NCBI GenBank assembly: GCA_035084275.1
Contig: CM068752.1
Span: 13,206,001 to 13,270,000 of the forward strand
Reading direction: 5' to 3'
DNA from: Hydrolagus colliei
Taxonomy: Eukaryota
DNA length: 64,000 nucleotides
In this document: positions 1-34,570 of the stretch, one piece after another
Numbering within the stretch: position 1 is the stretch's first letter
Layout of the letters: each line of letters opens with the position of its first letter
Notes under the pieces: generated by a model
What the model saw: the letters and a program-made list of their open reading frames with translations, nothing else
Databases searched by the model: none
Told to the model about the DNA's origin: nothing
Position numbers and translations under genes: made by a program

Positions 1-90
1 AGTTGATGTTGTAACTTCCACCTCTCTCCACTAGAGCGAGCCCTGTCACTGGCTGTAGGTGCCCAGATAAAACCTTCTTGCAAACAAAGC
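1..90 (-). CDS. WD40 gene coding exon 12, truncated by window ([24 protein letters not shown]...)
   Basis: tttag acceptor at 91-93, L.GH..PVTGL start of a WD repeat. Confidence 0.85.
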
Positions 91-3000
91 CTAAATTCAA
101 CAGATAAAACAGACTGGAGGTAAGACACTGCATGTGAGCTACACACAGGGACCTCAGGGCCTAATATGCTACATTCACAAATGGTCAATTTTGAAGTGTA
201 ACCTGCCTCCCACCTCAAGAGTGCAGATAAATCCTAATTACTAATTAGCGCCAGCAACATTAAACAAGTCTCAGGGCATTTCATGTCAAGTGAAATGACT
301 TAATTCAACCCAAATTTAACCATTTCAACCACAAAATAGTCAATCAAGTTTACAGTATATCCTATGAAGCACTTCGCAATCTCTCAAAGATGTTATATGT
401 AATATAGTTATTACTATTATTATTATTATTCTCACTTGCTTCAACATCCTGTAATGTGCCTCCTTCGCAAGCAATTACAGGTAAGCCTCTATTTAGGATG
501 CTTCTATTTAGGATGTTTCGATTGAAGGAACATAATTTTTTTAACACCTTTTGATCAATATAGGACACTTGGATTCATTTTAATGAACACAATTTTTATT
601 TGCGCATTCGCAGTACATATTTTGAATATCGCGGTTGCACTTCGCACATCCTTTTTGTCCATACGCACAGTACATAGTGTATTCGTGGCTAAATCGCGCT
701 CTCACCTGATATCCAAGCGTTTGAACTGGCCAATAGCATGTTGTCACTTCATTGTTTAAAAGCAGCTGATTTTGAAGCGACACCAAGCCACGTCAGTATA
801 ACAGTAACTTCCGAACATTCCTGAGCAACTTTGAGCGATTTACAGCCTCTATTGCGATTCCAGCAAGTTTGTAGAAAATGAAATGAGCAGTGATAATACC
901 GCTTGTGGCCAGAGACCCCGCAAAGTCATCACCTCAAATACCAAATTGGAGGTGATAAAGCGCATCAATTCTGGTGAAAAAGGTACGGATGTCGGGAGGG
1001 CTTTAGGGCTAGATTGATGGTGGCTACGACAAAGCAGAATAAGGACAATATACTGGTAAGTTCAAGGTGTGTTACAGCTACAGGTGCAAGCAGATTAGCA
1101 AAACATAGGAGTGATGTGATGGAAAACATGGAAAGAATGCTGAATGTCTGGATTGAGGATCAGAACCAGCGTAATATACCACTCAACACCCTGGTTATCC
1201 AAGAGAAAGCAAAATAATTGTTTAAGGAGTTAAATGATCAGGAAGGAGAAGGCTCAACGGCACCATCTTTCAGTGCTGGCAGAGGGTGGTTTCAAATGTT
1301 TAAAAGATGCTGTGGGCTCCACAACATCAAGATGAGTGGGGAAGCTGCAAGTGCCACTGTCACTGTCACACTGCCAGGATTGCCAGTATTAAAGTACAAT
1401 ACTATACAGTTACCCCAAGTACCCCTTCTTGCCTTTGTGTGTTATGTTGTGTATTTTTGTGTGTTATTTAGTGGGTTTAAGGTCCGAAAAGTTTGTGAAA
1501 AGAATTTGGCATCTCTGGTTATATAATGGGGCCGCATGGGAAATCGTGTTTCTATTTAGGACATTTCGATCTAGATACAGTTTTTCAGGAACACAACCTC
1601 GTCCTAAATAGAGGTTTACCTGTATTTCTTTCCCTTTTAGAAAAATCTATTGCATTCTGCTCCAACACATTTTACAGGCTTTCTAATCAGCAGGAATCAA
1701 TTGCCTAAATTAACTTGTTGGATGCTTGCTTTACCTGAAACACGGTTTGTAGCAGAATCAGCATCGTTTTCATTGTCTTCAAGGTCAAAGAGATGGTCTT
1801 TGGGAGTTTGGTCCAAGAGAACTTCAAATCTCTGGAAAACACAGGAATAAAAACTTGTTGTGCCTTGTGACGGAGTAATTTGCAGCCTTTCAGGAGAATG
1901 TGCTGTTCTGGTTTTTACACGAGAAGTTTGGATGAAACGGAAATATTCACTCCATGCGATCTCATCCTTCCTAAATATCTAACCTACTGCCTTTCTATTA
2001 CAAGGTCAAGCTGTTTCTTACTATGGAGCATGTCTGTGGATCTGTGTCGTTTAACTTCCCATTTTGTAGTTTGTCTGAAATAAAAGTATGCAAATTCTAC
2101 TCTCTCCCAGGAAACCACATTAACTGGGACTCATGCGGACTCATGCGGGATATCAGGAGAGATTAGCGGTGGCTAATAGTTTGTAAAATAACAACCACTT
2201 GCATTTACACAGTGCTCTTCACACAGGATGGTGTCTTAGAGTGCTATCTTTGCTCCATTTTCCCCTCTTTATTTCTGAAGCTTAAAATATAGAGACATCA
2301 ACTACGTTTCATGAGCAGCAATGTATAACAGCAACAATAACTATGGAGTAGTGTCGTGAGTAAATATATTTTTTAGTAGATTTAAGGTCCAAAATTTAAT
2401 TTAGTCTGAGCAGGTTAGACTATTTTATCTTAAAAATTTAGTACTCAAAAGTATGGAGAATTCTCAAATTCAGTTCTAATAATTTTGAAGTAATTTCTTT
2501 TTAAAAACTGTGATGAACTGTCTCCAAAATAAGATGAAATTGAAGAGGTTTCCAAACTTCCAAGTGATTTTAAATTTTGAGATTAAATGGAATTGCAAGC
2601 TAAAATGAGGTTGAATCTTGGGTCTTCCGTGTATAAATGAACACAGAGAATCTGTTGAGAAACATTGGTGATTTCACCCAATATTGCAATTCAAGCCTCA
2701 TTTGTATCCTTTTATCCTATTGGATTGGACTCAGCCGTTCGCCTCCTTCCTTGTTTCTCTGTAGGTGATCTCACCCGTATCCTGTCTTGTTGCAGTTTGG
2801 CTTTTGAAGGCATCATCTTGAGAATGCTGGTGAGGGAGTCGTCAAATCCCCAGAGATAAATCTTCCCATCCTCAGCAGCCAGTATCAACAGATCCAACTC
2901 CTCCACAAAGATTGACCTGCGATGCAGACACACTGAGATCAGGCACTTGAATTTCTCACAATGTCAGCCGTATGAGAACTATCTTAATATTCCTGAAATT

Positions 3001-6000
3001 ATAGAGGATTCTTAAATTCAGTCGTAATTCAGAAGCCAGCTTCTTATTTCCAAATCAGCGCTCAATCTGTTTGAAGAATAGTGTGTATCAGCGACTTGGA
3101 ATGTCCTCCCAATGTGAAAGGTGTTCTATAAATGTAATTTTGTTGTTATTGTATATGCAGATTAACAGAGTTGGAAAGGATTGCAGAGATAGTGAGGAGG
3201 CTGATCTGGAAAGGTTTTGACGTTGATGACAAGGAGCTTAAAAATAATTTACTAGTCAAGGGAGCCAGTGAATCCTGGTGAGGACATGGAAATGGGTATA
3301 GAGATTCTAGTTAGAATTGTTAAATAAAATTTGGGACGTAGTCTTGACAGGAAATACACTAAACAAATGCAACTTGTTATTGTGTGAGCAGAGTACAGGG
3401 AGTTTTATCCTGACATAATAATAATAATAATCCTTGCGTTTGATATGGCACTTTTCACATCTTCTAGACGTCTCAAAGCGCTTCACAGAATATACTGTAA
3501 AGTGAATTGAATATACACTGTATATTTGTGGACGAAACGCAGCAGCCAATTGCGCATTACTTTATTAGTGATGAGAGCTGACACTTGTCATTACATTCCC
3601 CACTCTTACAACCATGGCAGGGAGACAGGCCTACCTGGTGAAACAAGGTCTTCTGGTTCGCTTGGGTGTCCTGCTTTCAGCTGATTTCTGGACTTTACTG
3701 AGCTTTGAGCCTCCAGTCCAGTACTTATTGTGGGTTTTATTGTATGTGGTTTTCCTCCACTGTGTTCTATTATTGTGCGATTCTTCTGCCTTTGTCTGCT
3801 CATCCAACAGGTTAAAGGCTTCATGACTGAGGAGAGAAAGCAGACAATGAGTGATGGTTTAAAAATATTTGAAGGAAGGAGGAAATGCCATAGCAGATCA
3901 AAGCTAGGCTCTGTTCAAGGCACTCTTGCCTTGCGTCAGTGGTTGACTTTTCAAAATCTGTGTTTGAGCTTCTAGTCTAGATTGAGACTCCCCTCTCCCC
4001 CACACTCTCCTTCAAGGAACATGGAAACAAGATTAGGCAATTCAGATCCTTGAACCTGAACCACCATCGAATTAGATCATGGCTCAATGCCTTTGCTCTG
4101 TATCGCTTCATACATAAATCTATCCAACTAATTCTTAAATTTTTTGATGGATTCAGCAACAACAACAACAACAACAACTTTGATTTACATAGCACCCTCC
4201 ATGCCCTCAGAAGGGTGGTGGTGGTGGGGGGGGGGGGGGGGGGGGGAGGGAGCTCCAGAATTCCACTTCACTTTGTATGAAAAAATGCCTCTTAATTCCA
4301 CTCCAAAATGCCTCAGCTCTAATTTTAAGATATGCTTCCTTGTTGTGGGTTCCCCTACTAGAGGAAATGGTTTTCTGTAGCTACCCAATCAAACCCTTCT
4401 ATTATTCTGTGGAGTCCTGTAGCTCACTGGTTAGAGCACTCACCTTAAGTGAGAGACCTGGGCAGGTCAAAACCTTAAGCAAATTTCCTCATGCCACATG
4501 CCTAATAATACTGTAATAATCCCTCCATCTCCAAGAAAACCCCCAATAATAAATTGTTCATTTCAATCCATTACTGTTCATGGGACACTGCTATGCACAA
4601 TTGGCTGCAGTGTTTCTCCCACATATATACAGTCAATTCACTTTACAGTATATTCCGTGAAGTGCTTTGAGATGTCTGGAAGACGTGAAAAGTGATATAT
4701 CAAATGCAAGGATTATTATTATTTTAACCTTAATCAGATCAACAACAGCAACTCTGATTTATATAGCGTCCTCCACGCCGCACAGTGTCTCTGCGCACTT
4801 TGATCATCCCTCAACCTTTCTAAACTCAAGGGAATACAGACCTTGTTTATGTTACCTGTCCTTATAATTTAATCCTTTAAGTTCTGATATCATACTGGTG
4901 AATCTACGCTCAGCACATTGGGACGTCCTCCCAATGTGAAAGGCGCTCTGTGAATGTAATTTTGTTGTTGCTGTACACCTCCTCCTGGGCCAATATATCC
5001 TTGCTGAGGTGCTGTGCCCTCAACTGAACGTAATTCTCCAGATGGGATCTGATGAAGTCTTTTTACAGCTGAAGCATCATTTCCTTTCCTTTATATTTCA
5101 GCAGCGTCAAGATAAAACTCCATTGGCCTTTTTGATACCTTTTTGTACCTGTGAACTAGTGATTTGTGTATATGAACGCATAAATTACTTTGCTCCTCCA
5201 CAATTCTTAGTTTCTCACAATTTAGAAAATATTCTATTTTTTTTTGATCCATAGCAGATGACCTCACACTTCTCCACATTAAACTCCCTCTGCCACAGTT
5301 TTGCCCACTCACTTAACCTGTCTAAATCCCTCTATAACCTTATGCTCAAATTTACACAATTTACTGTGTCTGCTAACTTTGTGTCATCTGCAAATTTGTA
5401 TATAACAACCAAAAATTACATTTGTATAGTACCTTTCACAATAATATAAAACTCTATTCCTTCAATCAAGTCATTTTATATATATGTGTATACTATATAT
5501 GATGAAAAGCCAGGGTCCCAATACAGACCCCTGGGGAACAACACTTATCACGTACCGCCAATCAGAAATCATTCTTTTGATCTCTGCCTCTGATTCATGC
5601 CTCCCAAACAATTATCAATCTACATCACAAGGTTACTTCCAATTCCATGCACTTTTGTTTTTGCAAATAAACTCTTGTGCAGAACCATCGGAAATTTCAT
5701 ATAGACAATATCCATAGACACTCTGTCATCCACCAAGTTAGTGACTTCCCCAAAACATCTGTCAGATATGACCTACCCATCATAAATCCATGCTGACTCT
5801 CTTTGATTAGCGCATGCTTGTCCAAACACTTGGCCACTCTATCCCTGATGAGAGATTCCAGTAACTTCCCCACAACTGAATTTGAAGATGACAGGACTAC
5901 AGTTACCTGATTTCTCCCTCCTTTCTTAAATAATGGAGTGACATTTGCAATTTCCTAATCCAAAGACACAATTCCTGAATATGGAGAGCTTTGAAAAATT

Positions 6001-9000
6001 ATGACTCACTCATCTGCAATTTCCTCCCTCCCAGCTATAATACCCAGGGTAGAATCCATCAGGTCCTGGTGATTTATCTATCTTTAGTCCCATTATTTTC
6101 TCCATTACCATTTGTTAAATTTAGATTAAATCCATTAAGTGCTTCTCTTTGGCTTATTTTTAGATTCCATTTTCCCGCTGGTGTTTTGTCGCCTTCCGCT
6201 ATTATGAAAACGGAAGCAAAGTATTCATTTAACAAGTCTACCATTTCCTTATTATCTATCAGTCTCACCTATTTTATTGGCCCCACATTCCCTTTTAGAA
6301 CTCTATTTCTTCTAATGTATTGATTAACAAAACGTTATTGTTGCCCTTGATATTTCCCCTCACAGTGTAGTCCTGCCAAAGCACTGCGTCACTGCATAGT
6401 TCAGATTGTCACTGTTGGATGAAATGTTAAACTGAGCTCTTCTTTGCCTGCTCAGGTGGATGTTAAAGACCCTATAACACCATTTGCAAAAAGGACGAAG
6501 TTTCCAACAGTCCTTCAGACAAATCGGTGTTCATTCATGCTAATATTATAGTCAATCGTTATCATCCAAATCATGCAGGTACCTAACTGTGTCTCAAACC
6601 AATTGTCCAGATCTCAATTTGGATGCTACAGTATTAGACATCTTTAGTTATAAACGTTACTAAAGTTAGAGCGTTGACTGACCTGTAGAGGAAGTAGGAA
6701 GATTGATGTCGTTCCCATTTCAGAATGGTCCCATCGCCGTGCCCACTGAACAGCAGGATTGGTACCTTCTGGGCTTCAGACAGAGTGAAAACAGTGTCAT
6801 TAACAAATCTCTCCTGAGCACAACTCCCCGATCTACCATGGGTTGAGTGGACTCTCCGACAATGAGCCACCCAAGCTTAGCTCTTGCAAAAAAAACATTC
6901 CTTAAGGAATCACATTAACAAATACCACAAAGTCGATACTCCAGTGCTTTCAGGTTTTAACTTGGCTCAGTTGGTAGCACTTTTGCTTCTGTTTCAGAAG
7001 GCTATGGGCTGAAGTCCCATTTGGGAACTTGAAATCACTATCTAGTCTTGGCTGACACCCCAGTCATGCTTGGAGACAGAACTATATTGTCAGAAATCCT
7101 GTTGTTAAAATGTTAATTTGTGATTCTGTCTGCCCATTAAGGTGAATATTAAAGATCTGCTGCCACTTTTTGTAAAGAGAAAGGAATTTCCCCACCCCCA
7201 TTGCCCTCAGATCTGGAATCCTCCAGATTCATCTTTCACTCTATGGATATTTGAAGGACCTTGCTGTTTTCAAAAGTCTACACATTCAGCATTTAGTGTG
7301 AAGTACTTTAACACATTCCGATTTTACAAATTCATTATCAAATGCAAGGATTATTATTGATAGTTTAGGTCCCTTCATTTCCTGCCTCATGATTAGCAGT
7401 CAGGCATCTCTGCCCCACACTCTGGAAGTCTATCCTCCAGTTCCTCCACCTTACCCACCTCTCTTGCTTCCTTCAATAAAATCAATCAATCAAAACTTAC
7501 ATTTATATAGCGCCTTTCACATCGAGAGGACGTCCCAAGGCGCTGTACAGTTAGATAGGGACAAGGGCAAGGGAGGAGGGGTCGGGGCAGGATGAAATAG
7601 AGTAGGAAAATTGACTGTTTATTTGTGGGTGAAACGCGGAAGCCAAATTGCACACAGCAATGTCCCACGAATAATCATGGAAGTGGGATTAAGGGAAATG
7701 GGGGGCAAAAGATGTCAAGGGGAGGGGTCAGGGCAGGGGGACGGAGAGCAGGAAAGCCAATTGTATACTTGTGGGCAAAACGCAGCAGCCAAATTACGCA
7801 CAGCAGTGTCCCACAAACAGTGGCAGAAATGGGGCCAGGGGAGAAAAGAGGGCAAGGGGGGAGAGGGAGGGAAAGGTAGTGTAGAGCAAGGTCAGGGAGG
7901 AAGAGGAAGGAGAAAGGGGGGGCAAAGGAGAGAGGGAGGGAAAGGTGGGTGGGGGGCAAAATCAGGGAGAAAGGGGGCAAGAGTGAAGAAGGAGAGAAGG
8001 GGAAAAGCGGGAAGAGAAAGTGGAGAAAGGGAGTGAGGGAAGAAGAAGAGGGGTGGGGGGGAAAGGCCAGAGAGCAAGGGGGTGGGAGGAGTGGGGAATC
8101 AAACAACAGCAATAAACAACAAAATCAACCCTTCATTTCTCATCTAAAGACCTTCCTTTTCGACCGGGCCTTCAGCTAGTCTCCACCACCGAGCTGAAGT
8201 CCTGACTTCCCTGTGGGATCCGGAGGTACCATGTGTCCTGACTTTGATCATATATAGTCTATTCTGATATTGTAGTGCAGTGCTGGGCGTTTGTACATTG
8301 TTGGAGGTGCCTTCCTTCAGCGAAGCTATTAAATTGGCTGCTTGTTCAGGAGGACGTTAGAGATCCCATGGCATTTTTTGGAAAGAGATGGAAAATTTGC
8401 CTCCTGGCCAACAATTCCCAAAATAAAATGCGATATTTAATTTATAGCTGTTTGCGGGACACTGGTGTGACCAAACTGGCTGCCGTGTTTGCCTACAAAA
8501 TACAAAGTTGCTCTACTTTACAGGATATCCTATGAAGGGCTTTGAGATATTCTTCCAATGTGAAAGGTGCTATATCAAATACAAGGATTACAAATTAAAT
8601 ATAATAGATGATTGTTATTGCATGTTTTTTACCACGAGATGGTGCCAGATTCCCTGAATCTGTGCAGCTGTTCATTACCAATGTCCTCTCTGCAGCCAAT
8701 TGCAAAACTAACACTTAGGAAGTGTTGATATTGTCCATATTGAGAAACTGGGGTTATGCAACAGTTTTAACACCCGTTTATGCAACAGTTTAAACTCAGA
8801 CTGCCCTGTTTGGTCAGGTGAGTGAGACAGGAAATTGTAACGCAATAACTATGGGCTTCAGTAACTCATAAATAACAGTCAGACTAGCAGAGAGAGAGGT
8901 GGGAGGGGTGCTGATGTTATTGATGTTGGTCCAGTTGGAAGCAACAACCAATTGCATTTATATAGCGCCCTACACGCGGGGTAGTGTCCGGGAGTGTTTG

Positions 9001-12000
9001 ATAACACTCCCACAGTCTGGTCTGACACTATAAAGTCTCTGGTCTGACAACACTCTAAGTGTCGTCTTGCTGCTGAGACATTAAAACCAGATTGCATGTT
9101 CAGATCAAAATTGATATCCCACAGCCCAATTCAAAGAGTCAAGTTTCTTCTGGCAAGCAACCCCTTAGATATATACAGTTTGGCTGCCATGTTTACTTCC
9201 CAAATACGTTTGGTCTTGTTTTGTAACCTTAAAAAATTGGTTACTCAATCCACAACTGGTATGCGCAATAGGCTATTGGGATTCGCCCACAAAAGTCAAT
9301 CCACTTTACAATAGATTCTGTAAAGCGCTTTGAGATGTCTCAACAACATGATAAAGCGCTATATCAAATGCAAGGATTATTATTTACTATTGGCCTAAAT
9401 TACCTAGTACAATAATAATCATTGCATTATCTTGTTGTCTGATAAAATCAGAATTTCCTTTTCTTAATAAACCCTCCATGAATCCATCTCTGCTCTCAAA
9501 CTACTGCCCCACCTCCAACCTCCCTTTCCTTTCCAAGATCGTGGGATGAGTCAATGCTTCCCAGCTTCGCTCCTTCCTCTCCCACCACTCCCTTCATGAA
9601 CCCTTCCAATCGGGTTTCCGTACCGCCCTCAGCATAGAAACAGCTTTGTTCAAAGTGATGAATGACATTTTTCCATCTGCGACCAGTTGCCTCCTCATCC
9701 TCCTTGACCTCTCTGCTGCCTTTGATACCGTAGACCACACTTTTCTGCTCAATTGCTTCCCCTCTCAATTCAACCTTCATGGTTCTTTCCTTGAATGGTT
9801 CAGATCCTATCTCTCACACTGTCTCCACTTCATTTCCACAAATAGCCTCTCCTCTAGCCACCACACTGTCTTGTGCGACGTTCCTCTGGGCTCTATCCTT
9901 GGTTGCCTCCTCTTCAATATCTATACGGTACCTCTTGGTGACATCATCTGCAGATATGGGGTCAACTTCCATGTACACGGATGACACACAACTCTATATT
10001 TCTGCCTCCACCCTCAACTCAAGGACCATTGCTGTCCTGATAGAATGTCTGTCAGACATGATGTACAATAAGTTTGTACAGTTGAACATCGATATGACCA
10101 AGGGCCTCCTGATTGGCTCCCATCAGAACCTCCACACCTCAGGCACTGACAATTGACAGCATCACCATATGAGGATGCACGCTCCATCTCACTGAGCCAA
10201 TCTGCGGCATCTTGTTTGACCCTCAACTATCTTGTTTGACCCTCAACTATCCTTTCTATCCCACATCCATGCTATGCCATCCCCGCACTCTGCAACATCG
10301 CTTGGCTCTACTACTGGCTCACATCAAAGACCCTCATACACACATTCATAATATCCAGGCTTGACTACCTTGCTTGTCGGCCTCCCCAACTCCTCCCTCC
10401 ATGGGCTGCACATCATCCAGAACTCTGTAGCATGTGTCCTCTCCCGCAACAGGCTCTGTGACTCTCTCGCCCCCATCCTCACCTGACTCCACTGGCTTCC
10501 CATCACACTGAGGATATAGTTCCAGATCCTGTTCCCCATCTTCAAAGCATTCCATGGCCTTGCTCCCTCTACCTCTGCAACTTCCTAACCCCATAACAAC
10601 CTGCCTGCTCCCTCCGCTCAGTGGGTTCCAGCCAGCTCCACATCCCCGTCTCACCCACTCCACCATTGGCGAGAGGTGGCCACTCTGCCCCCACCTTCTA
10701 GAACTCCATCCCGCAGTCCCTCTGCCTCCCCCCGTCCCTTGCCTCCTTCAACATCTCAAGGTTCTCCTCTTCGACCATGCCTTCGGTTATCCTCCTTCCC
10801 CACCTGCCCTTCCCCTCCCCAATCCTGATACCCAGCTCGGGTCCAAACCACTAATTGTCCAGCACCTTGGGACATCCTCCAGACATGAAAGGCATTGTAT
10901 AAATGTAATTTTGTTGTTGTTGAATTTAGGAGATTGTTAGCCAGGACACTGGGAGATAATAATAATCCTTGCAGTTTCTATAGCGCCATATCACATCTTT
11001 GAGACGCACTTCACAGAATATTCTGTAAAGTGTAGTGACTGTAGATAACGTGGGTAAAATGTGGCAGCCAATTGCGCACAGCAGTGTTCCACAAATAGTC
11101 GGGATTGAATGATAAAATTAGAATTATTAATTATGATTACCATGTTATGAAGCTCTGTCTTTTTTTTGATGGATTCACGCTTTTTGTTTTGTATAGTGCT
11201 ACAGGATTATTAATGTTCACCTTAACAGGTAGACTGGACCATGGTTTAACATCTCATCCAAATGACAACACAATACTCTGCTCCCCTGTAGTGGACTGAA
11301 GTGTCAGCCTAATCTTATGAACTCAAAATCCCAACGTGAAGCTTGAACCCACACTCAGAGGCAAGAGTAGTACAGATATAGCTAGCCTGTCAATGATGGA
11401 AATTGATCAGTAGTTGAGGATGTGAACTGGAATTAAGAGGATTTAAACAGGAAACAAAGCAAGACAAGGGTGGGGTCAATTAGGGACCTAGGAGGAAATC
11501 TCATTGTGGAGGCAGAGGGCATGGCTGATGTACTGAATGAGTACTTCGCCTCTGTCTTCACAAAAGAAAAGGATACAGCCAATCCCATGGTATTGGAGGA
11601 GACGGTAGGAGAAATGGATAGAATAATTATAACCAGAGAGGAAGTTCTAAAAAGGTTGACGTCGCTCAAGGTGGATAAGTCACCTGATCCGGATGGGATG
11701 CACCCTAGGTTACTAAGGGAGGCACGGGAGCAAATAGCAGGGACTCTGGCCACAATCTTTCAATCTTCCTTGGACACAGGGGTCGTGCCAGAGGACTGGA
11801 GGATAGCTAATGTTACTCCCTTGTATAAAAAGGGGCAGAAGGACAAGCCTGGTAACTACAGACCAGTCAGTCTAACGTCGGTAGTGGGCAAACTTCTAGA
11901 GTCCATAATCGGGGACAAGGTAGATCTTCACTTAGAAAGATATAGGCTAATAAAGGACAGTCAACATGGATTTGTTAAAGGCAAATCTTGCCTTACAAAT

Positions 12001-15000
12001 CTGATAGAATTTTTTGATGAGGTAACGGAATGGGTGGATAATGGTAGCGCAGTTGATGTAATTTACATGGACTTTCAAAAGGCATTTGACAAAGTGCCAC
12101 ATGAAAGACTTATTAGGAAATTAAAGGCCCATGGCGTAAAAGGGACAGTGGCAGCGTGGATCCACAACTGGCTGCGAGATAGAAAGCAGAGAGTTGTAGT
12201 GAGCGGATGTTTTTCAGACTGGAGGGAAGTGAGCAGTGGTGTGCCACAGGGATCAGTTTTGGGACCATTGCTGTTTGTAATCTACATCAATGATCTGGAC
12301 TTGGGTGTACGGAGTACAGTTTCCAAGTTTGCAGATGACACTAAGTTAGGGAGAATAGTAAATAGTGAGGAGAATAGTAGCCATCTGCAAGAGGATATAG
12401 ACAAATTGGTAAAGTGGGCAGACACATGGCAGATGAAGTTTAATGCAGAGAAGTGTGAGGTGATGCATTTTGGGAGAAGAAATGAAGGGAGGCAATATAG
12501 GCTAGATAGTACAATTTTAAATGGTGTAAAGGAACAGAGAGACCTGGGGATTTGTGTTAGTGACTCGTTGAAGGTGGCAGGACAGGTAGACAAGGCTGTT
12601 AAGAAGGCATATGGGATACTAGGCTTTATAAATAGCGGTATAGAGTACAAAAGTCAGGAAGTGCTGACTAACCTCTATAAGACTTTGGTGAGGCCTCAGC
12701 TGGAATACTGTGTTCAATTCTGGTCACCACATTACAGAAAGGATGTGAAGACATTGGAAAGGGTACAACGAAGATTTACTAGGATGGTGCCAGGATTGAG
12801 GGACTTCAGCTATGAGGAGAGGCTAGATAGGCTAGGGTTATTCTCTCTGGAGCAGAGAAGATTGAGGGGAGACTTAATAGAGGTTTATAAAATCATGAGG
12901 GGTTTCGACAGGGCAAATAGAGAAAAACTATTTCCACTCATGGGCGAATCTGTGACTCGTGGTCACAGATTTAAAATAGTTTCAAGGCGAAGTAGAGGGG
13001 AGCTGAGGAGAATTTTTTTCACTCAGCGAGTTGTTCGAATCTGGAATGCATTGCCTGAAAAGGTGGTGGAGGCTGATTCGATAACAACTTTTAAAAGGGA
13101 ATTAGATCTTTATTTAGGGAGAACAGATCTATTAGGCTATGGGGAGCGGGCAGGGCAGTGGGATTAAATCGCTCTTTTCAAAGAGCCGGCACAGACTAGA
13201 TGGGCCGAATGGCCTCCTTTTGATTCAGAAGTTCAACCTAAAGGTAAGAAACATGAAGAGAAACTAAAGTAATGAGGATCAAGAATCCTCTTAAAAACAG
13301 CTAAATTTAGCTTTAGAGAAAACAAATAAAGCATTAGAGGAAGTAAGAGCAATATGCAGACAGTAGCTAGCGAGACCCAATTTAGCCAAATTAACAATAA
13401 TAATAATAAACCTTGCATTAGATAAAGCATTTTATTCCCCTCCACCTCCTTGGGCAGTTACTCACTGTAACTCAGACACTCCACAGGCTGCCTGCATTGT
13501 AGCGCAGTGACACAGCCTTGCTTGTTGTACTTCCACACACTCACTGCTTTCTGCTGGATGGTAAATCCTACAGTCAAAACGTAACACAGTATTAAAATCT
13601 ACTCTTTGAAACATCCAACTATTTGCCTGCAAAATGCACAGTTGCTACACATCACAGTAATTGCGGTGAAGCACTTTGAGGCATCCTCCTGATGTGAGAG
13701 GTGCAAGAAAAGTATAATCCTACTTTTAGTGGTTAGGTGATGCCAAGTTTGGAGTTTAAACATGTATGGTATGTAAGAGGAGATAAAGGATACAACTTCA
13801 CAGTCTCAAGTTTTCACTGCAAACAGTGCGACTACATCCAATCTGAGAGACTGTCTCCATGTTATCAGCCCAAGAGCACCAGAGAGAAGACACACTTACA
13901 TGCGTTTTTTGCCTAATTCTAGGCACAAATTGGTGCCACTCCATACCTGAGCTCCCCTCCTCTCTGCCTTCTGTTTTTTTTCCTCATTTGTACAATTTTT
14001 CTGTCATAAAATAAGAACTTAAGAAAAGCTAGGCAAAAATTACCTTCCACCTTTCTGGCAGTCGAATGCACGTATGACTCAAACTATCTATATGCTATAT
14101 ATCATAATGTTATTTTCTGTCCCTTCAATTTTTTCTTTTTCCTCCCTCTTCAACTGTTGAAATTTGCTTTCCTTTCTCATCCTGGCAAATATTGTACCAT
14201 TGTCTGAATTCCCCACCCAAAAAACATCTCGATGTTTACGAGTTGTGCTGGTGCAAAGTGATGGCCACATTTGCCAAAATAACAACTTTTATATTAAATT
14301 CAACTTCATGGCTGTTTGTGAAACATGTTGTGAACAAATTGGCTGTCAAATTCACCTACAAAATACAGTTATTGCAGTTTACAGTATATCCTGTGAAATG
14401 CTTTGAAATGTTCTGCTGATGTGAAAGGCACTATACTAAAAGCGAGGATTATTTACTTTTTTTCAGATCATTATCCTCTTTTTAATTAAGTCATTAATTC
14501 TGACTCCCTTGTGATCTGCGTGGATATTCAGGACTATTTCAAAGAAATGCAGAGTTTTTCTCCCTGTTAATCTTGGTTCATGTTCCCCATCACATCTGAA
14601 TTTAAATCAATTGGCTGGGTATCTTATTGTTGTACGGGTGCATTCGCTGGGAAAGGTTAGCTGATTTACTTAATAACATTACCTCTATTTCTAATTAATC
14701 TAATTTTGTTGAAGTGCTTTAAGATATTTACTTCATGTGAAAGTAAGTGGATGAGGTTCTGCTAACAAATGAGGTATAAATTCCTCACAAGGAATTTGGA
14801 GGAGTGTTCAGTATGTGAGTGTAAGTGCAGCGTGTAAAGTGGTGTGTGTGCAGTGCAGTGTGTAAGGTGCTGTGTTTGCAGTTCAATGCTGTGAAGACCA
14901 CAGTAACATTCATTAAACACGCACTTGTATTTTTCCCTTTCATAAAGCAAGGTCTGGTATTTGCTTAGGCTGTTTTGCAGCTGCAGTGGAGGGGGTTTAG

Positions 15001-18000
15001 TCCGAAAACAGCACAGGGTTGATCTAAACTTCATTCTTGGGTGAGCGTTGACTTTAGAAGCTTTGTTGCCTTTTATGAGCACCAAGTAACAAAGCTGATC
15101 CTAGCACAGCATCCCCACTCCACCCCCACACCAGCCAAATGGCTTGTGGGTTTCACTGACTAGCACTGTAGTGGAAAGCTTTACAACAGTGTATTTATTA
15201 AAAAAACGGAACCACCCTGTAGGCCTTATTAATTAATGATTCACGTTAACACCAGGGTAAGATAAACATTAATGAAAGGGTATTACATGCTTAGCATAAC
15301 TTCACTGGACCTGTTGCAGGATTGATGCATTAGGTTGGTTTCAAAATAAGTATTAAAATCAAGCGTTAATTCTTTTTAAAAAATATATTTTACTGTACTT
15401 CCTTTTAGCAGCTTGGAACAGTTCCAGTACAAGGTCAGATAGTTTTTAAAACATTATTTTTGAAAGGTCAGGAATCAGAAGCTGGCAAGGCACTCCATTA
15501 ATACAGTAATGCAATAATCCTTGCATTTAATATAGCGCCTTATCATGTCATTGAGCTGTCTCAAAGCGCTTCTCAGAATATACTGTAACATGTGGTGACT
15601 GTGTATTTTGTGGGCAAAAATGTCTGTGGAAGTATTGCATGACTTGGGAAAAGCTGGTACGTGGCTGAGGAAATGTTGCGCAGGTGGTGAAGTACAGATT
15701 TATAAACTTGCCAATCACGTGGTTAGTCTCTGGGAGGCAGATCACTTGATTCAACCTTGATCCATTCCTGTGCTTTTGAAAGGTGTCAATAGACTCGGAC
15801 ACCTGCAATCGGTTTGATAGTGAAAGATAATATCATTGAGAGAGTCCATGGAAGGCAAATATCATAAGGACAGTATCTTTTGTGGATTTACTCCAGTTTG
15901 ACAGAGGGGACAAAGCTATTCGCTCTCTGACAGGCAGAGAAGAATATAGTCCAACAGCGGCATCAACAACCACACACAACAAAACGACATTTATGAGACT
16001 CACAATTTCTCCAGAACTCGGGTCAAACAAAGTGGGGACTCTAACCCCACTGCAGATCCAGATGACGTTCACACAAGGCACAAAGCACAGGCTGCTGACT
16101 GTTCCTGGCAGATGGTGTAACTTCTGGATCAGCTGCCCGTCCTGCGACCAGACTTTTATGGCTCTGTCAAAGGAACCGGTCACCAGCCTGTTGAGTTCAG
16201 AGGAATTTGTTACAATAATTTAGGAATAGATAGCACACTACCCAGTGCCAGCCACTGGAGTTGTAGTTGTACTACAGGAATACACTTTTTAGCATGATGT
16301 TTTTCATTTGTTGATCAGTTCCTTTACTAGCGCATTGAAATGCTGCCCCGTGTGAAGGTTATACAAGTGTAAGTTGTTGGTGTCGTTCGCAGTTCTCTCT
16401 TGACTCTGTCACCCTCTCGTTTGGCCTTTGTCAGCGCACAAGAAGAACTTCAGTCGAAGTAAACATTGAATTGTAATATTGTCTTGTTATATCTCCAGCA
16501 ACTCCACACTTACAACCCTTAACACCAACGCCAAGGTACACTTACTCTTGCTCTATCCAGAAGTGACTGACCTGACCAGTTGTTGAGTTGTGGGTCACTC
16601 ACACTCACCGTGTGCTCTCGTGCTCCTGTACAAGCTGTAGACACGTGATGCCAGCCTCGTGCGCGCTGGCATTGCAGTAAACCACCTGAAGAGGTTTGTT
16701 ACTTGGGTTAGAACTGGTTTCATAAATGACCAGCTTCTTGTCGTACCTTTTCAATGGAGAACAGATATGATAATAATAATCCTTGCATTTGATATAGAGC
16801 TTTTCAAGTCTTCTAGATGTCTCAAAGTGCTTCACGGAATATACTATAAAGTGAATTGTCTGTAATATTTTGTGGGCAAAATGCGGCAGTCAATTCTACA
16901 CAGCAGCGTCCCACAAACAGTCATGGATTGAAGTGACCATTTTGTTTTGAGGGATTATTATTAGGCATGTGGAGTAAGGAAACTTGCCGAAGGTTTCACC
17001 CTGCCTGGAATTGAAATTGGTCTCTCTTTTGTAAGGTGAGTGCTTTAACCACTGCATTACAAGACTCCACTGTACTCCTTCCTTCAAGCCTCTATCCTTC
17101 ATTTACCTTCTTGCCTCTTTCAAGTCACGACTAAAGACTTGCTCTTAAACTGTGCATTCAGCCACCCTCCCACCCCCACTGATCTCCAACCCACCTGGCG
17201 CCAACTCCCAGCTTGAGTCCAAATACCCCTGACCGTCCAGCACCCTGGGAGTTCTTTGTAATGTGAAGGCCACTAACTCAATGTTGTTGTGTACCTTCAT
17301 ATTCCAAACACCAACTTAATGCCGAATGAAGTTCAACCTTGATGGAAAATGGTAACTAAACAGCAAATGCCAATTCCCAGTGTGTTGGCCAACAATCATT
17401 CAGATAATTATTCATTTACAATTCCAACTGTTTGTGGGACCTTTCTACGCACATTATGACTACTGGCTTTGGGGAAGACATTGGGAAAGAGAGTTCCAAA
17501 GCTTTGGGAGGCAGTGGTAATGATAACATGGTATTAGTTTAAAAAGCAGGGAATAACTCTTGGTTCCCCTTCTGATATTCCTCCCTTATCCAAATTCACC
17601 CCAGCAGAGAATCTCGTCATCATCTCTTTGCTGGCGTGGGATGTTGCTAATGGAGATCAATTGCTATTCATATCAACATTACACCAGTCACTACATTTTG
17701 AAATAATACTGCATGAGATATGTTGATTTGATAAAGTGCAATATCAAAAGTTTTTCTTGTATTATTATGAGTATTCTACTATTCTCCTGACAATTATCCT
17801 GACTATTATCCACACTATCCTTTAACTCCTCTACACAGGTTTTACACTTTTATAGTGCATTAGTTCTACAAATTGGGTCATCTAATCTGTGATCTATTCA
17901 ATTCCTCATGAGGATCCCAACATTGTTTTTGGTCAGTTAATGTACTTTTACCAGCTGGGTGCCTGACACGGGCAGAAACTCATCACCATGTCTAAGAGTA

Positions 18001-20366
18001 TGCTAAACTGTGTAGATTTCTATTGAAAGTATTGTCTGGCAGCCAAATCCCCAGCCCCAGCTCTGCCCCTCCAAGTTCTGCTGATGAAGTCAAATTAGTT
18101 TCCTGTGAACAGACAGTGACTGGGTCCCCCTATGACTCCAGTTTGTTCAGACCCAACATGTTAGCTTGTAATCTTTGACCACATCAAAGATTATTTGTTA
18201 GTAACACTTTGACGCATCAACAGTTTTATTTAGTGCAGGACATACCCAACGGAGTACACGCGTGTGTCCAGGCAGACCACACATGACACAACATCACTAT
18301 GCCTGTGATCAGAGAAACTTCTCTGTATGTCAATCACGTGGCCAGATTCCTTCTTCTCGTCCAAAGGAAAGACTCTCAGGCGCTTCTTGAAACCACAGAT
18401 GATTTGGTGGCGTCGGTGGCAGATTGCCATACAAAATACAGCAGCATTCAACTGGGAACACAGGAAGGACTTAATCAAATCAAAATTCACTAAAACCAAG
18501 GGAAGCTTTTAAATCTGTTATCACTTACAGCGATATAATCAGTTGCTGCATGCCCAACACAAATTCCTCTCTGTCACTCTATCACAGCTAATAATAATAA
18601 TCTTTGCATTTGATATAGCATCTTTTCACGTCTTCTAGATGTCTCAAAGCGCTTCACGGAATATGCTATAAAATGAATTGTCTGTATATTTTGTTGGCGA
18701 AACGCAGCAGCCAATTATGCACCGCAGTGTTCCACAAACAGTCATGGATTGAAATGACCAATTTATTATTGTTTTTTTGAGGGATTATTATTAGGCATGT
18801 GGAGAAAGCAAACCTGCCAAAGGTTTTGTCCTGTCGAGAATCGAACCCAAGTTTCTCGCTTGCAAGACAAGTGTTCTAATCACTGAGCTGCAGGAATCCA
18901 CCTGTAGCTATTTATTCACGTAAATACACTTTCATACCATTCTGCACAGCATTTGGGGTGTAGTCCTTGCAGTTCAATTAAAAGGAAAATGTCTGAGTGA
19001 AGTGAGTGAAAGGTCTTACCACAATCCTGTCAAACACAGTGGCAGCTACGTTCCATATCACTATTGTGCCATCGTTGGATGCTGAGAAGAGAAGCTTGGG
19101 TTCAGCCCAATACAAGAACTGTGTGATTATGCCACTGTGCACCTGGCACACAAACGTCATTTTTCCAGTCTCTAAATCCCACCATTTAATAACACCGTCT
19201 GAAACAGGAGAAAAACAGAACTCAGAAATGTACCGATGTGGAAAAGATTTGGCTGGTCCCAAAGTGATGAAAACATGTTATTTCCTCAATTCCCTTAATA
19301 CATTTATGTGTCAAATAACTAACTTTTTTGAACTTCACATCCAAACACCCACTGTACTGTGTGTAAAATAATTCAGCATTCCTTCTTTGCTTGATTTTGA
19401 TATGTTTAATTGTTTACACCTACAGTGTATATTGTCAAAATATCTACACTTACTTAGATGTAAATCTCCATTACAACTGACCTTGGCAACAACAATAACA
19501 ACAAAATTATATTTGTACAGCGCCTTTCACATCACGAGGAAGTTTCAAGGCAGTGATCTGATAACCCGGAGTTTGACCTTTTTTAAACATGAGAAGATAC
19601 GAGTAAGCAAATTTGGTTTATAATGTACATTGGAGTGAGGGGAATGGGTGGGTGGGAATCTTTATCTTTCTGTCTTGTGAACATTTCAACTTAATTAACC
19701 TCTGTGTTTCTGGGTCAGTGCGCTCTGATCTAATCTTCCCAGCTCTGACTGTAAGGATTATGTTCCCATATTTCGGAAAACTCTCTTAGCAGATAGAATC
19801 GACCTCCTTGTAGTTTGCCAACTCCCTTTCTTAGTTTAGAAATCTTAATTGGATCACCCCAAAACTCTTGGAATTATAAATAGAACCCAAGTTTACCCAG
19901 CCTCTAGCTGTCAAAACTATAAATCAATGATTTGAAACACCGAAGTTCATTTAATCATAGAATCATTGAATATTACAGCACCGAAGAAGGCCATTCAGCC
20001 AATCGTGCCAGCTGTTTAGAAGAGCAATCAAATCAGTCCATCTCCCTCACTCTTTCCCCATATCCCTGCAAATGTTTATTTTTCAACTACCTATCCAATT
20101 CCTTTTTGAAGTTGTTATTGAATCTTTTCCCATCACCCTTTCAAACAGTGCAGTCCAGATTGTAACAACTCTCTGTAAAATAAAATGTCTCCTCATCTCC
20201 CCTCTGGTTCTTCTGTCAATTATCTTGAATAACTGGTTAGTGGTGGTTTCTCAGATTTCTTACCTTCAAAACCTGTTAGGAACTCTCTGCGAGCTGTGTG
20301 GTAACCCAAGGCACTCACTGACCGGCTGTGGCAGTCTGCGATTGTCAGGTGTTGCTGCATAGACAT
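1..20366 (-). CDS. Uncharacterised multi-exon WD40-repeat (beta-propeller) protein gene, 3' end beyond left window edge; coding exons 20366-20264, 19198-19020, 18451-18246, 16746-16609, 16187-16004, 15802-15712, 13567-13466, 6773-6683, 3826-3635, 2916-2775, 1831-1735, 90-<1
   Basis: All 12 exons have AG acceptors and GT donors (one GC) with matching phases. They join into a stop-free frame of about 538 codons: [118 protein letters not shown]. An in-frame TGA lies 4 codons upstream of the ATG. Confidence 0.88.
478..1622 (+). mobile_element. Internally deleted Tigger/pogo-like (Tc1-mariner superfamily) DNA transposon
   Basis: 23-bp TIRs (CAGGTAAGCCTCTATTTAGGATG / CGTCCTAAATAGAGGTTTACCTG, 2 mismatches) and TA on both sides. 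Decayed CENP-B/psq HTH ([15 protein letters not shown]; [12 protein letters not shown]; [19 protein letters not shown]) at about 883-1355; no DDE domain. Confidence 0.9.
1735..1831 (-). CDS. WD40 gene coding exon 11 (RFEVLLDQ...DSATNRVS)
   Basis: ttttccag acceptor, CAG|gtaaag donor, phase 0/1. Confidence 0.82.
2775..2916 (-). CDS. WD40 gene coding exon 10 ([26 protein letters not shown]...QQDRIR)
   Basis: cgcag acceptor, CGG|gtgaga donor, A.EDG.I.LW motif. Confidence 0.88.
3635..3826 (-). CDS. WD40 gene coding exon 9, basic linker ([11 protein letters not shown]...RTRRPCFTR)
   Basis: ctcctcag acceptor, AG|gtaggc donor, phase 2/2, 63 open codons. Confidence 0.8.
4213..4250 (+). repeat. (GGT)n plus poly-G microsatellite
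   Basis: gggtggtggtggt followed by a run of about 20 G. Confidence 0.9.
4409..4723 (+). mobile_element. Full-length tRNA-derived Deu-domain SINE
   Basis: A-box-like tagctcactgg, Deu-like gggacactgctatgcacaattggctgc, L2-type tail with (ATT)n. Confidence 0.85.
6683..6773 (-). CDS. WD40 gene coding exon 8 ([31 protein letters not shown])
   Basis: pyrimidine tract plus gaag acceptor, AG|gtcagt donor, SG.GDG.I.KW motif. Confidence 0.88.
7690..8100 (+). repeat. Purine-rich (G/A) low-complexity tract
   Basis: Largely G/A with many G3-G7 runs; generates spurious ORFs. Confidence 0.85.
9495..10922 (+). mobile_element. Decayed L2 LINE (RT plus 3' tail)
   Basis: [31 protein letters not shown] with frameshifts; ends in a stem-loop and (TTG)n. 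Confidence 0.88.
11440..13225 (+). mobile_element. Young 5'-truncated CR1 LINE with intact reverse-transcriptase ORF, antisense within a WD40 intron
   Basis: ORF 11470-13167 with [23 protein letters not shown] and FADD motifs, the CR1 C-terminus (TRGHRFK..FFTQRVV..WN.LP), and a 3' UTR ending gatgggccgaatggcctcc. Confidence 0.95.
11470..13167 (+). CDS. CR1 ORF2 fragment (reverse transcriptase, 565 aa; endonuclease missing)
   Basis: Uninterrupted frame with all RT motifs; non-ATG start at the truncation point. Confidence 0.85.
   Translation: MGSIRDLGGNLIVEAEGMADVLNEYFASVFTKEKDTANPMVLEETVGEMDRIIITREEVLKRLTSLKVDKSPDPDGMHPRLLREAREQIAGTLATIFQSSLDTGVVPEDWRIANVTPLYKKGQKDKPGNYRPVSLTSVVGKLLESIIGDKVDLHLERYRLIKDSQHGFVKGKSCLTNLIEFFDEVTEWVDNGSAVDVIYMDFQKAFDKVPHERLIRKLKAHGVKGTVAAWIHNWLRDRKQRVVVSGCFSDWREVSSGVPQGSVLGPLLFVIYINDLDLGVRSTVSKFADDTKLGRIVNSEENSSHLQEDIDKLVKWADTWQMKFNAEKCEVMHFGRRNEGRQYRLDSTILNGVKEQRDLGICVSDSLKVAGQVDKAVKKAYGILGFINSGIEYKSQEVLTNLYKTLVRPQLEYCVQFWSPHYRKDVKTLERVQRRFTRMVPGLRDFSYEERLDRLGLFSLEQRRLRGDLIEVYKIMRGFDRANREKLFPLMGESVTRGHRFKIVSRRSRGELRRIFFTQRVVRIWNALPEKVVEADSITTFKRELDLYLGRTDLLGYGERAGQWD
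13466..13567 (-). CDS. WD40 gene coding exon 7 ([34 protein letters not shown])
   Basis: tgtag acceptor, A|gtgagt donor, open frame. Confidence 0.85.
15712..15802 (-). CDS. WD40 gene coding exon 6 ([30 protein letters not shown]), GC donor
   Basis: tgcag acceptor in phase 0; G|gcaagt donor gives phase 1, matching the next exon (G+GA = Gly). Confidence 0.75.
16004..16187 (-). CDS. WD40 gene coding exon 5 ([17 protein letters not shown]...FDPSSGEI)
   Basis: cag acceptor, ATT|gtgagt donor, classic TGS.D..IKVW WD40 motif. Confidence 0.92.
16609..16746 (-). CDS. WD40 gene coding exon 4 (YDKKLVIYE...[19 protein letters not shown])
   Basis: aag acceptor, CG|gtgagt donor, WD-type AH..GITCL motif. 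Confidence 0.88.
16768..17070 (-). mobile_element. Full-length tRNA-derived Deu-domain SINE
   Basis: Same head, Deu domain and tail, in reverse orientation. Confidence 0.85.
18246..18451 (-). CDS. WD40 gene coding exon 3 ([11 protein letters not shown]...[19 protein letters not shown])
   Basis: ttcccag acceptor, GG|gtatgt donor, phases 0 and 2 fit the neighbouring exons. Confidence 0.9.
18589..18901 (-). mobile_element. Full-length tRNA-derived Deu-domain SINE
   Basis: A and B boxes (gggttcgattc), Deu domain, (ATT)n tail. Confidence 0.88.
19020..19198 (-). CDS. WD40 gene coding exon 2 ([12 protein letters not shown]...[22 protein letters not shown])
   Basis: tttcag acceptor, GTG|gtaaga donor, two WD motifs. 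Confidence 0.92.
20264..20366 (-). CDS. WD40 gene coding exon 1 (exon acceptor at 20426; [34 protein letters not shown])
   Basis: tttacag acceptor, ATG at 20366, GAAG|gtaaga donor; phase 1 joins AC to give Asp of [11 protein letters not shown]. Confidence 0.85.
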
Positions 20367-20519
20367 TTCACTCGATCACTGCCTGTGTCCTGCACCAGTA
20401 TCTTAACCTCAAACTTTTTGAATCCTCTGTAAACCCGATAAGAATCACCCAGACAATGGAAGCATAGCTCTTGAATTTCTCCAGTGCCTCTATTTCATCT
20501 AGAAACCCAACTTTTGGAT

Positions 20520-34430: not shown

Positions 34431-34531
34431 GTAGGACACATTTGCGAGCGGATTCCATCAATGTATAGCCGATCACCTCTTCTCAGCCAGCCACCTTCAG
34501 TTGAAATTATCAGATGTTCTAGATAAAAGAC

Positions 34532-34570
34532 ATGGCAGGAAAAACAAAATGCATGGTGAATGGGCGTCTG
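34532..34570 (+). CDS. RGS14: RGS14 first coding exon ([13 protein letters not shown])
   Basis: gacATGg Kozak context, CTG|gtgagt donor, similar to MPGKPK..NGRM. Confidence 0.8.

Follow-up and report, generated by a model that had tools for sequence, protein, structure and literature searches.

We describe an intact, single-copy gene for a WD40 protein in the chimaera Hydrolagus colliei, which belongs to an unnamed and, as its relatives suggest, vertically inherited and very old family. The gene lies in a stretch of 64,000 nt of contig CM068752.1 (GenBank assembly GCA_035084275.1, positions 13,206,001 to 13,270,000 of the forward strand; called the window below, with coordinates counted from its first letter), in divergent orientation to a likely RGS14 gene. 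Judging by the taxonomic range of the family, the protein is rather likely to serve motile cilia or their basal bodies as an accessory scaffold without catalytic activity. A RefSeq model of the orthologue existed already, and the gene is ordinary in kind, encoding a WD40 double-propeller scaffold. New is the family-level picture of an unnamed eukaryote-wide family whose range is ciliary and which the main model vertebrates have apparently lost more than once.

The WD40 gene and the predicted fold of its product

With exon 3 as a query, a single protein was returned, the RefSeq protein XP_007889613.2 of Callorhinchus milii with 753 amino acids (aa). A tblastn search with this protein against the window and 200 kb to its left revealed 17 colinear exons on the minus strand. 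With exact splice sites set, the spliced coding sequence comprises 2262 nt, which correspond to 753 aa and a stop codon, without internal stops. The alignment to the C. milii protein is ungapped, with 692 of the 753 residues identical; the 61 differences are concentrated in the disordered part encoded by exon 9, and no insertion or deletion was found. All 16 introns end with AG and 15 begin with GT. No stop, frameshift or broken splice site was detected in the 17 exons. In a search of the whole 1.0-Gb genome with the C. milii protein, all 17 exons were found at this locus, and elsewhere there was only one weak, generic match with 30% identity, which shows that the gene is single-copy. Thus, the locus harbours an intact 17-exon gene, in line with an earlier note on the window, which had read it as an intact multi-propeller WD40 gene.

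The first coding exon (20264-20426, on the minus strand like all exons of this gene) encodes aa 1-34, of which 33 are identical in C. milii, and contains the ATG at 20366. The earlier note had given the gene the extent 1-20426; the 60 bases ahead of the ATG (20426-20367) carry three in-frame stops and thus represent a 5’-untranslated region. Propeller 1 is encoded largely by exon 2 (19020-19198, aa 35-94, 56/60 residues identical), exon 3 (18246-18451, aa 95-162, 62/68), exon 4 (16609-16746, aa 163-208, 40/46) and exon 5 (16004-16187, aa 209-270, 61/62). Exon 6 (15712-15802, aa 271-300, 28/30) is followed by intron 6, a GC-AG intron with its donor at 15711-15710 on the minus strand. According to the splice sites and the AlphaFold model, exon 7 (13466-13567, aa 301-334) spans the junction between the propellers near aa 315. 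Exon 8 (6683-6773, aa 335-364, 28/30) belongs to propeller 2, as does the least conserved exon 9 (3635-3826, aa 365-428, 51/64), which encodes a short helix and a basic disordered loop. In the model, exon 10 (2775-2916, aa 429-476) contributes a blade of propeller 2 and the start of a helical insert, and model and alignment together assign to exon 11 (1735-1831, aa 477-508) an acidic disordered loop with a short conserved helix at its end. Exon 12 (1-90, aa 509-540) straddles the window edge, continuing 5 bases beyond it, and exons 13 to 17 (aa 541-753 and the stop codon), located by tblastn and splice sites, lie 3.6-8.3 kb to the left, so that the gene extends 8.3 kb past the window. The part inside the window, exons 1 to 12, has 1615 coding nt or 538 codons, in agreement with the 12 phase-matched exons and approximately 538 stop-free codons reported earlier. 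A candidate exon at 8707-8633 and longer versions of exons 5 and 8 were dropped, since they or their extra parts do not align to the C. milii protein.

The GC donor of intron 6 is also present, without difference, in a contig of the DNA run X1, which may be the assembly’s own source. That X1 is a DNA run follows from its even coverage of the introns of the gene. Between 13300 and 20600, X1 and the assembly differ at one exonic site, 18260, a third codon position, where the difference is read as silent. Two introns contain mobile elements. In intron 7, a CR1-type long interspersed nuclear element (11437-13167, plus strand), antisense to the gene, has a 576-aa open reverse-transcriptase frame and looks young. 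In intron 11 (approximately 880-1380, plus strand) there is a broken remnant of a DNA transposase, which we take to be of the Tigger/pogo-like type.

An AlphaFold2 model was calculated from a 41-sequence alignment, with a mean predicted local distance difference test score (pLDDT) of 83.6 and a predicted template-modelling score of 0.75. By count of the strand list it has 14 blades, corresponding to two seven-bladed propellers, and the Pfam WD40 score of the protein is 144 bits. Residues 315-739 superpose on single seven-bladed propellers (Z 34-36, root-mean-square deviation about 2.2 over about 297 residues), which leaves aa 1-314 as the first ring. Thus, propeller 1 is predicted to comprise aa 1-314 and propeller 2 aa 315-739, with both flexible loops, the basic and the acidic one, in propeller 2. 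The pLDDT is below 50 at aa 376-420 in the basic loop and at aa 477-500 in the acidic loop. Exon 9 encodes 14 K/R and 6 D/E in 64 aa, exon 11 encodes 3 K/R and 9 D/E in 32 aa. The basic and acidic nature of these inserts had been noticed correctly, but they had been described as separating the WD40-type motifs; both are predicted to lie inside the second propeller and not between the two. Of the 41 aligned members, 37 have a net positive charge in the first insert and 34 a net negative charge in the second (aa 455-508); in both inserts, the sequence itself varies. The model of an algal member, although of lower confidence (pLDDT 68.8), shows the same 14-blade layout and has an insert at the corresponding blade.

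The invariant columns of the family alignments are mostly structural residues of the WD40 blades (Trp, Asp, His and Gly), and no catalytic motif was seen in them. The model finishes at the strand 731-736, which is followed by a disordered tail of 17 residues up to aa 753. Non-opisthokont members (P0146, P0153, P0161, P0171, P0174, P0179, P0195 and P0285) have an additional tail at the C-terminus, in which a short motif is conserved and a helix is predicted; the animal proteins are without it. Among non-animal members, such a tail with the conserved motif is frequent (7 of the 23 rows tested).

Taxonomic range of the family

In a protein word search with the C. milii query (proteins of 414-1318 aa; best 120 of 209 matches), 96 further rows were found at E<1e-95, followed by a fall to generic WD40 proteins at 1e-54. 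The organism is named for 87 of these 96 rows: 14 are chondrichthyan, 7 are from non-teleost ray-finned fishes (including sturgeons, gar and bichir), 1 is from a lungfish, 24 are amphibian, 21 squamate, 19 invertebrate and 1 fungal (Piromyces). The invertebrate rows comprise sea urchin, hemichordates, molluscs, an annelid, nemerteans, cnidarians, placozoans and a sponge. The identity between the chimaera protein and those of corals or sea urchins is 44-46%.

A HMMER search of 1.84 billion representatives extended the family to distant members. We looked up 20 of the 150 listed representatives, which were picked by their score on family-specific regions and not by organism, and 13 could be named: lamprey, Seison, a tardigrade, Sycon, Diphylleia (two), Myrmecia, Gloeochaete, Gefionella, Chara, Mastigamoeba, Chromosphaera and Sorochytrium. 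A profile of six distant members, with the 7994 best candidates scored, added Asterochloris (identified by its JGI tag), two Trebouxia, two Apatococcus and the lycophyte Diphasiastrum. The named non-animal members thus number 15 (Piromyces, Sorochytrium, Chromosphaera, Mastigamoeba, Diphylleia, Gefionella, Gloeochaete, Myrmecia, Asterochloris, Trebouxia twice, Apatococcus twice, Chara and Diphasiastrum). With a profile of the family-specific middle part (aa 240-375) they score 36.6-164.6 bits, compared to at most 18.5 bits for 32 generic WD40 proteins. No named member from Dikarya, flowering plants, red algae, nematodes or insects was found in these searches.

A quick maximum-likelihood tree of 71 rows, midpoint-rooted and with eight long branches of unsure placement, broadly tracks the species tree, with the window protein as sister to that of C. 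milii. The presence of members in animals, fungi, Amoebozoa, malawimonads, CRuMs and Archaeplastida leads us to infer an origin near the root of eukaryotes. The earlier suggestion of an ancient scaffold kept in cartilaginous fish is apt as to age, but the protein is not a relic of that group, since the gene is also intact in non-teleost ray-finned fishes, lungfish, amphibians, squamates, lampreys and many invertebrates and extends to protists, algae and fungi. In literature searches by identifiers (including LOC752732) and by topic, no paper on any family member was found. A lizard lung gene under selection, designated ALL2124 in PMC9942394, was considered and rejected, because it is located next to PRODH2 and CABP5 and not next to RGS14 or ARL3.

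A possible ciliary function

Each of the 15 named non-animal members belongs to a lineage that has flagellated stages, in what is a small sample. Flagellated stages are known for Diphylleia, Gefionella, Myrmecia, Asterochloris, Apatococcus and Diphasiastrum. Ciliated cells or stages in the groups of Piromyces, Sorochytrium, Chromosphaera, Mastigamoeba, Gloeochaete and Trebouxia, and sperm in the group of Chara, are described in PMC6492006. Several of the carrier lineages are flagellated only as sperm or zoospore, which would point to motile rather than sensory cilia.

WD40 domains are established binding platforms, and a tandem propeller without a catalytic motif most likely serves as one. The two propellers would thereby connect two binding partners, in the manner of CFAP52 or AIP1, and the basic loop, whose charge is kept across animals while its sequence is not, would make contact with acidic surfaces, for example the tails of tubulin. 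Mammals, birds and probably most teleosts would each have lost the gene on their own, the protein being dispensable to that degree. A place among the inner proteins of the doublet microtubule is improbable, since the solved sea-urchin doublet contains no chain of the family although sea urchins have the gene. The central apparatus, a radial spoke, a dynein-linked site or the basal body may be its location, or it may have a role in cytoplasmic assembly.

Several points weigh against a ciliary role. The argument for it is drawn from distribution, which itself is known from a small sample. Flagellated lineages also retain many other ancestral genes, so that the profile is suggestive and not specific. 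No search, including the profile search in which the 7994 best candidates were scored, gave a named member from Chlamydomonas, ciliates or trypanosomes, which is weak evidence. By sequence, two profiles or two folds, no PDB chain belongs to the family, many axoneme structures included; most solved axonemes come from species in which no family member was found. Since mammals and birds possess motile cilia but apparently not this gene, it would not be a part of the core machinery. Further, the basic loop is reduced to 6-8 residues in Diphylleia, Gloeochaete, Gefionella and Myrmecia, and thus cannot be a binding element used throughout the family. The sea-urchin and Nematostella ciliomes presented in bioRxiv 10.1101/153437 bear directly on the ciliary claim.

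A more far-reaching version of the ciliary proposal is slightly less likely than not: the protein could be a structural part of motile cilia or basal bodies going back to the last eukaryotic common ancestor, with independent losses in mammals, birds, most teleosts and perhaps Chlamydomonas, and could for this reason have been missed by standard-model genetics and cryo-electron microscopy. Alternatively, it may be an old WD40 adaptor with a non-ciliary task, for example in substrate binding by a ubiquitin ligase, in trafficking or in actin control, its range reflecting the retention of ancestral genes. Double propellers serve in many non-ciliary roles, as the top Foldseek rows (the small-subunit processome, Apaf-1, Gemin5, AIP1 and COPI) illustrate; the missing solved ciliary structure and the lack of named members from Chlamydomonas, ciliates and trypanosomes also favour this reading. 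However, the named non-animal members, all from flagellated lineages, include those few fungi, ichthyosporeans and land plants that are flagellated, and no named match came from the heavily sequenced non-flagellated groups. We consider such an adaptor unlikely, yet it is the alternative to be taken most seriously. Less probable still is that mammals and birds keep an orthologue hidden in a diverged or fused named WDR gene that has moved away from RGS14. None of the 67 named vertebrate rows among the best 120 of 209 is from a mammal, bird, turtle, crocodilian or teleost, compared to 21 from squamates, and database entries for mammals, birds and teleosts far outnumber those for squamates. No representative lacking an organism name branches as sister to squamates in the 71-row tree, and the human PDB chains do not exceed a generic WD40 score. 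On the other hand, the word search was limited in protein length and overlooked lamprey and two further true members (P0123 and P0129), whose 22-32 exact 5-mers in common with the query overlap the 23-42 of the squamate rows that were found, and the 50% representative library of the HMMER search carries no names. In addition, P0129 groups with gar and may, by this position, be from bowfin or an early-branching teleost. Since the word search skips some true members, the loss in mammals that the earlier note had considered, next to a relocation, is likely but unproven. Absence of the family from mammals and birds is nevertheless highly probable, and absence from teleosts is probable with clearly less assurance.

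The RefSeq name of XP_007889613.2, probable U3 small nucleolar RNA-associated protein 13 (UTP13), raises the question whether the protein is UTP13/TBL3 or another double-propeller protein of ribosome biogenesis. TBL3 and WDR3/UTP12 indeed have an N-terminal double propeller, their chains are near the top of the fold and profile searches, where they count among the generic matches, and the Pfam family of the first WDR3 propeller (PF25173) is just above its cut-off (157.6 versus 154 bits, summed over four partial stretches); PF25172, with 75.5 versus 140 bits, is far below. However, human TBL3 (7mq8_LR/7mqa_LR) shares 12% identity with the chimaera protein, with a TM score of 0.34-0.36 and a generic profile score, and WDR3 shares 13-14%, with a TM score in the same range. 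UTP13 has a C-terminal helical domain and WDR3 a C-terminal Utp12 domain, while our model stops at the last blade and the short tail. PF08625 was not among the best 25 of 37 Pfam families for the protein, and a PF08625 search of this genome for a separate TBL3 gave two sub-threshold matches, both on contig C2. UTP13 and WDR3/UTP12 are generally regarded as universal, yet no yeast or flowering-plant member of the present family was found, and its orthologues carry many unrelated automatic names. An assignment to this group is thus extremely improbable, and the UTP13 label is a wrong automatic name. The view of the gene as unrecognised therefore does not hold for the gene model, which RefSeq already had, but it does hold for the correct name.

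The family is important for several reasons. Catalogues of ciliary genes were built mostly on human, mouse, zebrafish and Chlamydomonas, and families missing there stay invisible however old they are. The presence of this one in Xenopus and sea urchin makes the proposal directly testable. If the protein is ciliary, it is an extra part of the ancestral flagellum, a candidate to fill double-propeller densities still unassigned in the axonemes or basal bodies of non-mammals, and a clear example of a gene lost repeatedly among vertebrates; it could then also point to an ancestral substructure of the cilium with which human cilia have dispensed. If it is not, an orphan eukaryote-wide WD40 family still needs a correct name.

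Gene neighbourhood and comparison with named WD40 families

To the right of the WD40 gene, a gene of the RGS R12 group is located on the plus strand, which agrees with the head-to-head arrangement given in the earlier note. Its identity as RGS14 is likely: one RGS-box exon slightly favours RGS12 and the next favours RGS14, and it is followed by exons of SLC34 type, fitting the human order RGS14-SLC34A1 as we take it to be. The probable first coding exon (34487-34570, plus strand, ATG at 34532) matches in phase and presumably corresponds to the N-terminus of RGS14, a resemblance on which, together with the phase, the assignment is based. A probable micro-exon (52927-52948), the exon with the start of the RGS box (62330-62498) and the second RGS-box exon (63134-63226; best PDB match RGS14 with E 1.4e-11, versus 3.3e-10 for RGS12) follow on the same strand. 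The probable ATG of RGS14 and that of the WD40 gene are approximately 14 kb apart, and no other coding gene is evident between the two genes. A well-formed exon at 22275-22356 (plus strand), with an ATG and a phase-0 donor, lies 1.9 kb from the WD40 start and may serve RGS14 as an upstream exon or an alternative first one. The idea of a CpG-island promoter shared with RGS14 was dropped, since no 500-base window passes the cut-off between 19000 and 42000. Right of RGS14, the SLC34-type exons are followed by a multi-exon amine-receptor-like G-protein-coupled receptor gene and a forkhead (FoxI-like) gene, all named by reading of their translations.

Left of the window, at 29-135 kb, tandem genes with immunoglobulin (Ig) exons, read as Siglec/CD22-like, are arranged on both strands and flank an ARL3-like small GTPase gene (approximately -114 to -118 kb, minus strand; 1979-5605 of segment L013). 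The near-identical repeated Ig exons mark this cluster as a recent local expansion. Further left, at approximately -180 to -188 kb, there is a gene of VIP36/LMAN2 type, either LMAN2 or LMAN2L. Fused models in sturgeon (P0031, P0062) and gecko (P0067) join the WD40 gene to an ARL3-like gene, one of them passing through an Ig-like stretch, which suggests that the neighbourhood is old. In human, LMAN2 presumably adjoins RGS14 directly; if so, the block of WD40, Siglec-like and ARL3-like genes is missing there. The ARL3-like gene is a second gene of a ciliary family in this block, which seems to be missing from the human LMAN2-RGS14 interval.

The impression that the protein matches no named WDR gene held for the families tested (TBL3, WDR3, CFAP52, AIP1/WDR1 and Gemin5), all with 10-14% identity. 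The loose resemblance to WDR87 and WDR97 mentioned in the earlier note showed up in none of the searches, and these names appear on no search row; their sequences were not compared directly, and both proteins are presumably longer than the upper limit of the word search, 1318 aa. In the ESM Atlas, the whole protein gave only generic WD40 clusters, and the middle part of an algal member gave mixed WD40 clusters including CFAP43 and CFAP52 fragments; these are leads only and are not counted as support. AIP1/WDR1 and Gemin5 share the tandem seven-bladed architecture, but their identity is 12-14%, the TM score is 0.32-0.35 and the sequence signal is no better than that of generic WD40 proteins. 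By contrast, Strongylocentrotus purpuratus LOC752732, Xenopus tropicalis XENTR_v10008326, Petromyzon LOC116945906 and Trichoplax adhaerens TRIADDRAFT_51347 belong to the same family, with 38-49% identity over most of their length; they are uncharacterised and without a family name. The known protein that can serve as a working analogue for the proposed role is CFAP52/WDR16, with its two seven-bladed propellers and ciliary range. It differs from the chimaera protein in sequence (10-12% identity, TM score 0.32-0.35) and in its retention in mammals. Even in the sea urchin the two are clearly distinct, since CFAP52 aligns to aa 8-122 alone (E 1e-16), whereas the sea-urchin member of the new family aligns over the full length with 46% identity.

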